NCBI GenBank assembly: GCA_018716575.1
Contig: DVJR01000045.1
Coordinates: 1 to 47,487 of the forward strand
Length of the DNA: 47,487 nt
Direction of reading: 5' to 3'
Source of the DNA: Candidatus Scatomonas merdavium
GTDB taxonomy: Bacteria; Bacillota; Clostridia; Lachnospirales; Lachnospiraceae
Shown here: piece after piece, positions 15,150-17,369 of the stretch
How the letters are laid out: the number at the start of each line of letters is the position of its first letter
Position numbering within the stretch: position 1 is the stretch's first letter
The notes under the pieces: model-generated
Told to the model about the DNA's origin: nothing
Database searches by the model: none
What the model saw: the letters and a program-made list of their open reading frames with translations, nothing else
Translations under genes and position numbers: made by a program

Positions 15150-17369
15150 ATGAGCGTTGAATATTTGAAAAGTATTCTGGAAAATGGCAGGAATATCGTC
15201 TGCCTGATGGGAAGAACTCCGGCCGCTCTTCAGGGGTGTGATTTTTATCGTGACGAGTACGGGGATGAAGTTGAGCTGAAATACGGCTATTCAGCGGACG
15301 ATATTTTTTCCAGTACCTTCTACAGCAATCGCCCCAGGACTTTTTACAAATTCTACCGGGAGGAAATACTGAAGAAGAGAGGAAAGCCGGACGCCTGTAA
15401 TTATGCGCTGAAGCGTATGGAGGATGACGGGCGGCTGCTGGGCATTGTAACCAGAGGGTTTATGAACCGCTCCCGGCGGGCAGGCTGCCGGAATGTGATT
15501 CAGCTGTATGGAAATATTGATGAAAATACCTGCCCCCGCTGCGGGAAAAAATACGATGTGGATTATATGCTGACCCATACGCCCCTTCCTCTGTGCGAGG
15601 AGTGCGGGACACTGATTCATCCGGGAGTGGCTTTAAAAGGCGAGATTCTGGACAATCTGATTATGACCCGGGCAGCGGATCTGATCTCCCGGGCTGATAT
15701 TCTGATGGTAGTAGGCTGTAATCTGGCATCGCCGCTGGGAACTCTGGTAAAATATTTTAATGGAAAGATACTGGCTCTGGTTAACAATGAGCCGCATTTT
15801 TCCGACTGCAAGGCGGACTGCGTCTGCATCGGTGACATTAATGAGATCATGACGCAGGCGTATCCCGACAGAAGTGGGAAGACAAAAACGGAAACAGGAG
15901 AGACATCCATGACAAAAGTAAAGACAAGATTTGCACCCAGCCCCACGGGCAGGATGCATGTGGGCAACCTGCGGACGGCTCTTTATGCCTATCTGATCGC
16001 GAAGCATGCGGGCGGCAGTTTCATGCTCCGAATCGAGGATACGGATCAGGAGCGTTTTATGGACGGAGCGCTGGATATTATTTACCATACCCTGGCGGAG
16101 ACCGGGCTGGATCATGACGAAGGACCGGACAAGGACGGCGGCGTGGGGCCGTATGTGCAGAGTGAGCGGAATGCGCAGGGTATCTACCTGAAATACGCGA
16201 AGCAGCTGGTAGAGCAGGGAAATGCTTATTACTGCTTCTGTGACAGGGAGCGCCTGGAATCCCTGAAAACTACGGTTGACGGTAAGGAAATCTCCATCTA
16301 TGACAAGCACTGCCTGAACCTCTCCAAAGAGGAGGTGGAGGCGAACCTGGCGGCCGGAAAGCCCTGGGTGATTCGTCTGAATGTACCGCGGGAAGGTACG
16401 ACGTCCTTTCATGATGAGATATATGGCACTATAACAGTGAATAATGCGGAGCTGGACGACATGATTCTGATCAAGTCCGACGGCTATCCTACTTATAATT
16501 TTGCCAATGTTGTGGACGACCATCTGATGGGAATTACTCATGTGGTGCGGGGCAACGAATACCTGTCCTCTACGCCCAAGTACAATCTTCTGTATGAGGC
16601 TTTTGGCTGGGAAATCCCGGTCTATATCCACTGTCCGCTGATTACCAACCAGGATGGCCAGAAGCTCAGCAAGCGCAGCGGTCATTCTTCTTATGAAGAC
16701 CTGATTGAGCAGGGCTTTCTGACGGAGGCGGTGGTTAATTTCGTAGCCCTGCTGGGCTGGAGTCCGGAAGATGACAGGGAGATATATTCTCTGGAGGAAC
16801 TGGTGGAAGCGTTTGATTATCACCGGATCAGCAAATCGCCGGCGGTATTCGACATGACCAAGCTGAAATGGATGAACGGCGAATATATGAAGGCCATGAG
16901 CGATGAAAAATTCTATCGGATGGCGCTGCCGCATCTGAAAAAGGTTATTACCCGGGACTGTGATCTCAGAAAGATAGCAGCCATGGTTAAGACGCGAATC
17001 GCTGTTTTTCCGGATATTTATGAGATGGTGGATTTTTTTGAGCAGGTGCCTGAATATGATGTGCAGCTATATGTCCATAAGAAATCCAAATCCACAGTGG
17101 AATCTTCACTGGAGATTCTTGAAGAAGTGCTGCCGCTTCTGGAGGATGCAGAAGATTACAGCAATGACGGACTGTATGAGCTTCTTCAGGCTTATGCGGA
17201 GAAAAAAGAGTATAAGATCAGTCATGTAATGTGGCCTATCCGGACGGCTCTCTCCGGAAAGATGACTACGCCGGCCGGAGCCACGGAGATTATGGCAGTG
17301 CTGGGCAGGGCGGAGAGCCTGAAGCGCATCCGGGATGCCGTGGAAAAGATCAGGAATGCAGTACAATGA
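15150..17369 (+). CDS. gltX: degenerate Sir2/CobB-like domain (aa ~1-240) fused in frame to glutamate--tRNA ligase (from ATG 15909)
   Basis: Glu[27 protein letters not shown]-terminus follows the sirtuin layout with CPRC/CEEC Zn ligands; no stop between them; AGGAG at 15896-15900. Confidence 0.9.

Follow-up and report, generated by a model that had tools for sequence, protein, structure and literature searches.

A degenerate sirtuin domain joined in frame to glutamyl-tRNA synthetase in Candidatus Scatomonas merdavium, a member of a probable pseudo-sirtuin subfamily of Lachnospiraceae

Sirtuin chemistry requires the cofactor loops, the Asn/Asp nicotinamide site and the catalytic His. Yeast Arc1p is a non-catalytic synthetase cofactor and the PurB protein of B. 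subtilis is an activator of glutamyl-tRNA synthetase (GluRS); our search of the open-access literature returned no paper on PurB and GluRS. In the accessible text of PMC8556138, prokaryotic sirtuins are divided into classes II, III, U, M and Sir2-like, with no inactive class listed there, and type I and II GNATs are described as carrying catalytically inactive acyl-CoA-synthetase domains. The accessible part of PMC4518038 presents SirTM (class M) as a macrodomain-linked, ADP-ribosylating sirtuin that lacks the catalytic His, with reported occurrences in Lachnospiraceae and, in some organisms, a fusion with the partner from its operon. The FGExL motif is given as the sirtuin peptide staple in the available portion of PMC11820453. 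For E. coli, the available sections of PMC6209979 indicate that lysine acetylation in the KMSKS region lowers the activity of class I synthetases and is CobB-sensitive, and acetyl sites of GluRS are listed there.

The window studied here, the whole stretch of 47,487 nucleotides that was analyzed from Candidatus Scatomonas merdavium, contains an ORF of 739 aa (15150 to 17369, plus strand) composed of a degenerate sirtuin domain, a linker and a GluRS. The domain shares its fold, the zinc site and the peptide-staple Glu with the class U deacylases (Sir2Tm, SrtN; PRK00481, PF02146), but GAGxS, PDFR, QNxD, the His and GTS are all replaced, new residues are fixed, its scores lie under every NCBIfam cut-off, and it is linked or fused to gltX. 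It resembles SirTM, as far as the text of PMC4518038 goes, in being a class of bacterial sirtuins that lacks the catalytic His and is joined to a partner in some organisms, whereas SirTM has QG, keeps the Asn/Asp nicotinamide site and has a macrodomain partner, and the family described here has YG or HG and has lost Asn/Asp. No macrodomain gene was present among the neighbor ORFs scanned, the neighbors in the window being acp and gltX. The catalytic and anticodon domains are complete both in bacterial GluRS (GltX, TIGR00464) and in our protein, which differs by an N-terminal extension of 253 aa; sirtuin-GluRS fusions of this kind formed two clusters only among 1194 longer candidate proteins. 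Arc1p and PurB would be possible functional analogues with unrelated folds, and the inactive GNAT domain is, in the text available from PMC8556138, an analogue as a dead regulatory domain, also of unrelated fold.

Direct translation of the 739-aa ORF gave zero internal stops, and Pfam placed SIR2 at residues 47-192 (E 5.8e-22), tRNA-synt_1c at 256-574 and Anticodon_2 at 587-730. The linker was checked on contigs from eight of the 20 sequencing runs containing the stretch (7 studies), and a single contig spans it in all eight, one of which may be the source sample, while contigs drop rare variants. No substitution was listed between 15654 and 15950 in these runs, and no indel, strain variants occurring elsewhere, and the identical 739-aa protein is on 14 contigs. 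Four of the eight runs carry the label "chicken gut metagenome", and two RNA libraries from one study are among the bridging runs, their contigs showing neither transcript ends nor levels. The original prediction that a Sir2-fold domain is joined in frame to a complete GluRS thus agrees with the HMM matches (SIR2 and tRNA-synt_1c) and with the runs, in which the linker has no stop or frameshift. A misassembled contig, or the decay of a gene whose stop was recently lost in a single strain, would suit the unfused state of most relatives, and also one annotation (P0050) in which the second fused locus, the G003-type locus treated below, is given the 485-aa GluRS alone. Assembly error is ruled out, since the linker is bridged unchanged in every run examined, and decay is opposed by the strain variants of the domain, four of five being synonymous and the fifth changing Ile to the family-consensus Met, and by a domain dN/dS of 0.09 between the two fused species; we give this explanation almost no weight.

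Motifs of the degenerate domain (residues 1-239; 15150 to 15866, plus strand) were assigned by comparison with Sir2Tm and with the intact sirtuin of the same genome, and both comparisons returned the substitutions and the two CxxC pairs read earlier from the sequence. The GAGxS/PDFR cofactor loop is absent (GRTPA at 21-25, CDFYR at 30-34), the QNxD nicotinamide pocket is replaced by TRGFM (101-105), the catalytic His by Tyr120 in YG (120-121) and the GTS phosphate loop by GCN (189-191). The zinc site, from CPRC (128-131) to CEEC (149-152) (15531 to 15605, plus strand), has all its cysteines (C128, C131, C149 and C152), and the staple FGExL reads LKGEIL, with a diverged partner strand. AlphaFold2 modeled a confident Sir2 fold, Rossmann plus zinc-binding, with a pLDDT of 94.6; Foldseek matched it to Sir2Tm (E 7e-21), with a TM of about 0.8 to Sir2Tm and Sir2Af, and a search of the ESM Atlas returned SIR2-labelled clusters only. 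The best NCBIfam score was 139 on PRK00481.1-1, against a cut-off of 221. The top PDB sequence match is 2H4H, an engineered Sir2Tm H116Y with the same His-to-Tyr change; this mutant is reportedly impaired, and the open-access literature search found no paper on it. The intact sirtuin, on contig C153 of the same genome, is 33% identical to the domain, and its presence alongside would fit a duplication and change of role.

In a tree of 192 sirtuins the domain belongs to a clade of 90 rows with a support of 99 (quick method), nested among canonical sirtuins, and a split by QNxD yields the same 90 rows. GAGxS, PDFR and QNxD each occur in 0/90 members, GTS or GSS in 6/90 and the catalytic His in 42/90, whereas GAGxS is present in 90 and the His in 98 of the 102 remaining rows. 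The loss of deacylase and NAD motifs noted at first for one protein is thus a property of the whole clade. Kept in the clade are the four zinc Cys (99-100%) and E165 of the staple (97%); newly fixed are E42 (99%), Y45-G46, R61 (96%) and R102, which replaces Gln (78%), and conservation of the V-Y-P strand after GTS, the second peptide-binding strand, is lost. A profile search with one genome per genus found the family in at least 67 of 400 Lachnospiraceae genomes, about one in six, a floor because at most six candidates were scored per genome, with the newly added matches counted without a motif check; in a single-sequence search all 65 matches from other genomes were without QNxD. The family was not extended beyond Lachnospiraceae, since the best 16 matches in 300 scored genomes of the class were all canonical sirtuins. 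Two to three pseudo-sirtuin paralogues per genome were seen in G073, G143, G155, G217, G328, G374 and G003 (L112). Another partly degenerate sirtuin group (P0031 and P0032, with GPDFS, PDYR, TVNID and RG) lies outside the main motif pattern.

Over eight genus pairs, pairwise dN/dS ranged from 0.03 to 0.19 in the domain and from 0.03 to 0.11 in GluRS, most dS values being near saturation; the G001/G005 pair, with a dS of 0.43, gave 0.029. These values indicate purifying selection on the N-terminal domain and not the neutral drift that would have spoken against the original prediction. The clade is a probable pseudo-sirtuin subfamily with a rare synthetase fusion. As the required cofactor loops, the Asn/Asp pair and the His are lost, NAD chemistry is not expected and the domain is very probably without deacylase activity, although the members that keep the His may retain some residual chemistry. 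An enzyme with new chemistry, either SirTM-like ADP-ribosyl transfer or an NAD-independent reaction, could work through R102, R61 and E42: new charged residues are invariant in the clade, and SirTM, in the text available, lost the His yet gained a new activity (PMC4518038). The same text has SirTM needing Asn118 and using Asp120 for nicotinamide, and the equivalents of both are lost here along with the GAGxS and GTS loops; moreover, zero macrodomains were found among 109 scanned neighbor ORFs (the second scan with a strict cut-off), and we regard a new enzyme as quite improbable.

The GluRS part (486 aa; 15909 to 17369, plus strand) has intact HVGN and KLSKR, reaches 505 bits on TIGR00464, where the cut-off is 290, and includes the PF19269 anticodon domain. 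A search of the assembly, which is 80% complete, gave no other gltX but did give a distant GlnRS-like match. The linker of 14 codons (15867 to 15908, plus strand) is a former intergenic spacer, with no repeat copies in its own genome. An internal AGGAG ribosome-binding site (15896 to 15900, plus strand) stands 8 nt before ATG 15909, exactly as first described, and the same motif and spacing occur in G003 and in the relic of G004. The upstream ATG 15150 is preceded at 7 nt by a Shine-Dalgarno-like AGGGGG (15137 to 15142, plus strand), with a duplex energy of -9.3 to the anti-Shine-Dalgarno consensus. The predicted masses are 83.9 kDa for the long fusion and 55.4 kDa for the short GluRS. Use of the internal start, proposed in the original prediction, is probable given AGGAG in both fused species and a GluRS in G004 that starts from that ATG alone; the retention of GluRS in G004 suggests that the internal start works, and it is likely that both the long and the short GluRS are made.

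Directly upstream of the fused ORF lies an acyl carrier protein gene with HMM matches (14860 to 15093, plus strand), itself preceded by a sigma-70-like promoter match of 10/12 (14782 to 14810, plus strand; a consensus match only) and by an ftsW/rodA-family gene (13567 to 14799, plus strand), an upstream neighbor common to this subclade only. Downstream, a PcrA/UvrD-like helicase (17356 to 19188, plus strand), a second candidate partner, overlaps the end of gltX at 17356-17369. Some helicase proteins share a 90% cluster with the fusion, possibly via a frameshifted assembly. The acp gene at 14860-15093 is 43% identical to another in the window (34364-34594), which lies within the usual plsX-acp-rnc-smc-ftsY cluster. 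At 27792-30333 a HIGH nucleotidyltransferase, presumably TmcAL-like, is divergent from phosphotransacetylase, an ordinary arrangement.

Analysis of the 58 genomes in which both genes were located indicates that the domain gene immediately precedes gltX in 26; five more have it at most 6 kb away, and in the remaining 27 the two genes are far apart or on separate contigs. The upstream neighbors of the pair vary (ftsW-acp, thrE, a nitronate-monooxygenase-family gene), and the neighbors of unlinked domain copies are also varied. In the same genomes the gltX-pcrA adjacency (44/52) is tighter than that of domain and gltX. The 50 distinct unfused pairs cannot be counted as independent; in 18 the genes are no more than 4 nt apart, and in eight the reading frame is shared and, past one stop codon, open, so that a fusion is easily reached. 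In the rearranged G113, G127, G209, G223 and G321 the domain gene adjoins pcrA, or is one ORF off, and not gltX; gltX is relocated in G113, and the sole GluRS of G127 is of another type, 36% identical. The usual gltX was not found in G127 (C1:178655-179773), G016, G017, G032, G037 or G057, whose best match is a GluRS-like protein 36-42% identical in a 550-590-aa frame, which suggests displacement. The true partner might instead be the PcrA-like helicase or ACP, which the locus also encodes, with gltX just the gene in between, as the five rearranged genomes and the recurrence of fatty-acid genes nearby (acp, acetyl-CoA carboxylase, enoyl-CoA hydratase, fabV) would allow. The pcrA-side placements follow passively from local rearrangement, however, an upstream acp is largely confined to one subclade and the remaining neighbors are for the most part unrelated, and we hold such a partner to be very improbable.

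Among nine genomes of the genus, the gene is fused in that of the window (G000) and in G003, the two genes lie side by side but separate in six, and G004 retains a broken relic; the distinct pairs are 50 unfused against two fused. The second fusion is a G003-type protein of 745 aa, named in the sources as the GluRS of Wansuia hejianensis, and the same Wansuia hejianensis contig has been annotated twice, once with 745 aa and once with 485 aa. The two fused species differ in their linker, with a dS of 1.3-1.8 between them. G003 groups with the unfused G001 and G005 (96%, three genes) and a clade of G000 and G003 is rejected (AU p=0.029), so that the tree rejects a single inherited fusion without loss and leaves either two gains or one gain followed by a reversion in G001/G005; the fusion is labile. 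G001 was considered as a third fusion, in a 766-aa frame, and was ruled out by direct translation, its in-frame spacer being open behind one TGA. Programmed stop read-through in the unfused relatives was also dismissed, since 12 of 50 spacers are in frame, not above the expected third.

The G003-type linker contains a palindrome found nine times in the G003 genome and 0 times in a reversed control, and the commoner allele, of 768 aa, has one whole 69-nt repeat unit in the linker. The G003 repeat (L216-L223, e.g. C1:3084870-3085010) is dispersed and palindromic, with the 69-nt unit single or in tandem. The linker is open with or without the unit, and all six junction-spanning proteins examined are fused, although an unfused allele would go unnoticed among the entries of 485 aa. 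The 23-codon polymorphism was not accepted as proof of frame selection, the insert being a genomic repeat unit and a multiple of three. G004, the sister of G003 (100%), has a 98%-complete genome of 1.4 Mb on a long branch and represents a strongly reduced Lachnospiraceae lineage. Between its acp and gltX (L009, C5:10052-14524) the domain and a G003-type linker survive as an AT-rich remnant with frameshifts, followed by an intact GluRS that starts at the internal ATG with AGGAG, and the domain is therefore dispensable in this lineage.

The original prediction had offered as an alternative that an adjacent gene recently lost its stop codon. The comparison of relatives supports this in that separate genes are usual, and opposes it as a one-strain accident, since the fusion is also found in G003. 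Since the domain usually has a gene of its own, the fusion came about when a stop or the spacer was lost; most likely this happened because the genes were adjacent, and the joined form was tolerated because GluRS kept its own start. The occurrence in two species at this dS and the open G003-type linker mean that the fusion could be selected, but the rough neutral chance of a linker without a nonsense change is 0.17-0.42, so that selection for fusion is not established, and it is fairly likely that the fusion is tolerated rather than required.

These points bear on the idea that the domain is a dedicated GluRS regulator which reads or shields acylated lysines (e.g. of KLSKR), the fusion being selected as a tether. 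The position directly upstream of gltX or within 6 kb of it, despite changing upstream neighbors, and the fusion in two species that form no clade speak for this idea, as do the effect of KMSKS-region acetylation on class I synthetases and the acetyl sites of GluRS in the sections of PMC6209979 cited above, which make GluRS a reasonable candidate partner. It is weakened by the tighter gltX-pcrA pair, which shows that the locus is conservative anyway, by the 27 genomes with distant genes, by the different GluRS of G127 and the domain of G113 that stayed by pcrA after gltX moved, by the open linker being weak on its own at the chance just given, and by the lack of a member in about five of six sampled family genomes (the family count being a floor). 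We consider a dedicated regulator rather unlikely. Likewise, tethering to GluRS as the specific role, as originally proposed, is not supported, since 32/58 genomes do not have the gene immediately before gltX and G127 keeps it with the other GluRS type. GluRS is the most likely single partner of the domain, although it is doubtful that it is the partner. A complex prediction of GluRS and domain scored 0.00, gave no answer and bears neither way on binding.

The explanation that we favor, with moderate confidence, is a zinc-stabilized, non-catalytic sirtuin binder that was joined to GluRS via a lost stop, with both GluRS forms made. A conserved sirtuin paralogue, its NAD-binding and catalytic motifs gone, would act as a binder through the old substrate-peptide groove; the stop codon of this upstream operon gene would have been lost, giving an in-frame junction to GluRS, and with its own start kept the cell would make GluRS of 84 kDa and 55 kDa. 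The zinc site, the staple Glu and the new pocket Arg suggest, by residue conservation, a putative binder of a peptide, an acylated lysine or an anion. The groove may no longer bind peptides, since the second strand, V-Y-P, is not conserved, and whether the domain binds a peptide or acylated lysine is for us an evenly balanced matter. A wider and improbable reading is that acylated-lysine readers across Lachnospiraceae act on GluRS and couple the load of acetyl and butyryl donors to tRNA-Glu charging, two lineages having fused reader and synthetase and setting the ratio of tethered to free enzyme by the internal start.

The sources annotate proteins of the family as NAD-dependent deacetylases or hypothetical proteins, and our search of the open-access literature (subscription journals and supplements being outside its scope) found no description of the family or of the fusion, so the degenerate-sirtuin family is apparently undescribed. 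If an acyl-lysine reader on GluRS were confirmed, it would give a class of pseudo-sirtuins in bacteria and a tRNA synthetase with an appended domain of sirtuin fold, and our search of that literature found neither described. With Wansuia hejianensis as a named carrier of the fusion, the role of a dead sirtuin and the control of GluRS by acylation become directly testable. The locus offers a natural series, from separate through coupled and fused with an internal start to decayed genes, and a selected clade without sirtuin chemistry in a major gut family represents a candidate class of pseudo-enzymes and a source of annotation error.
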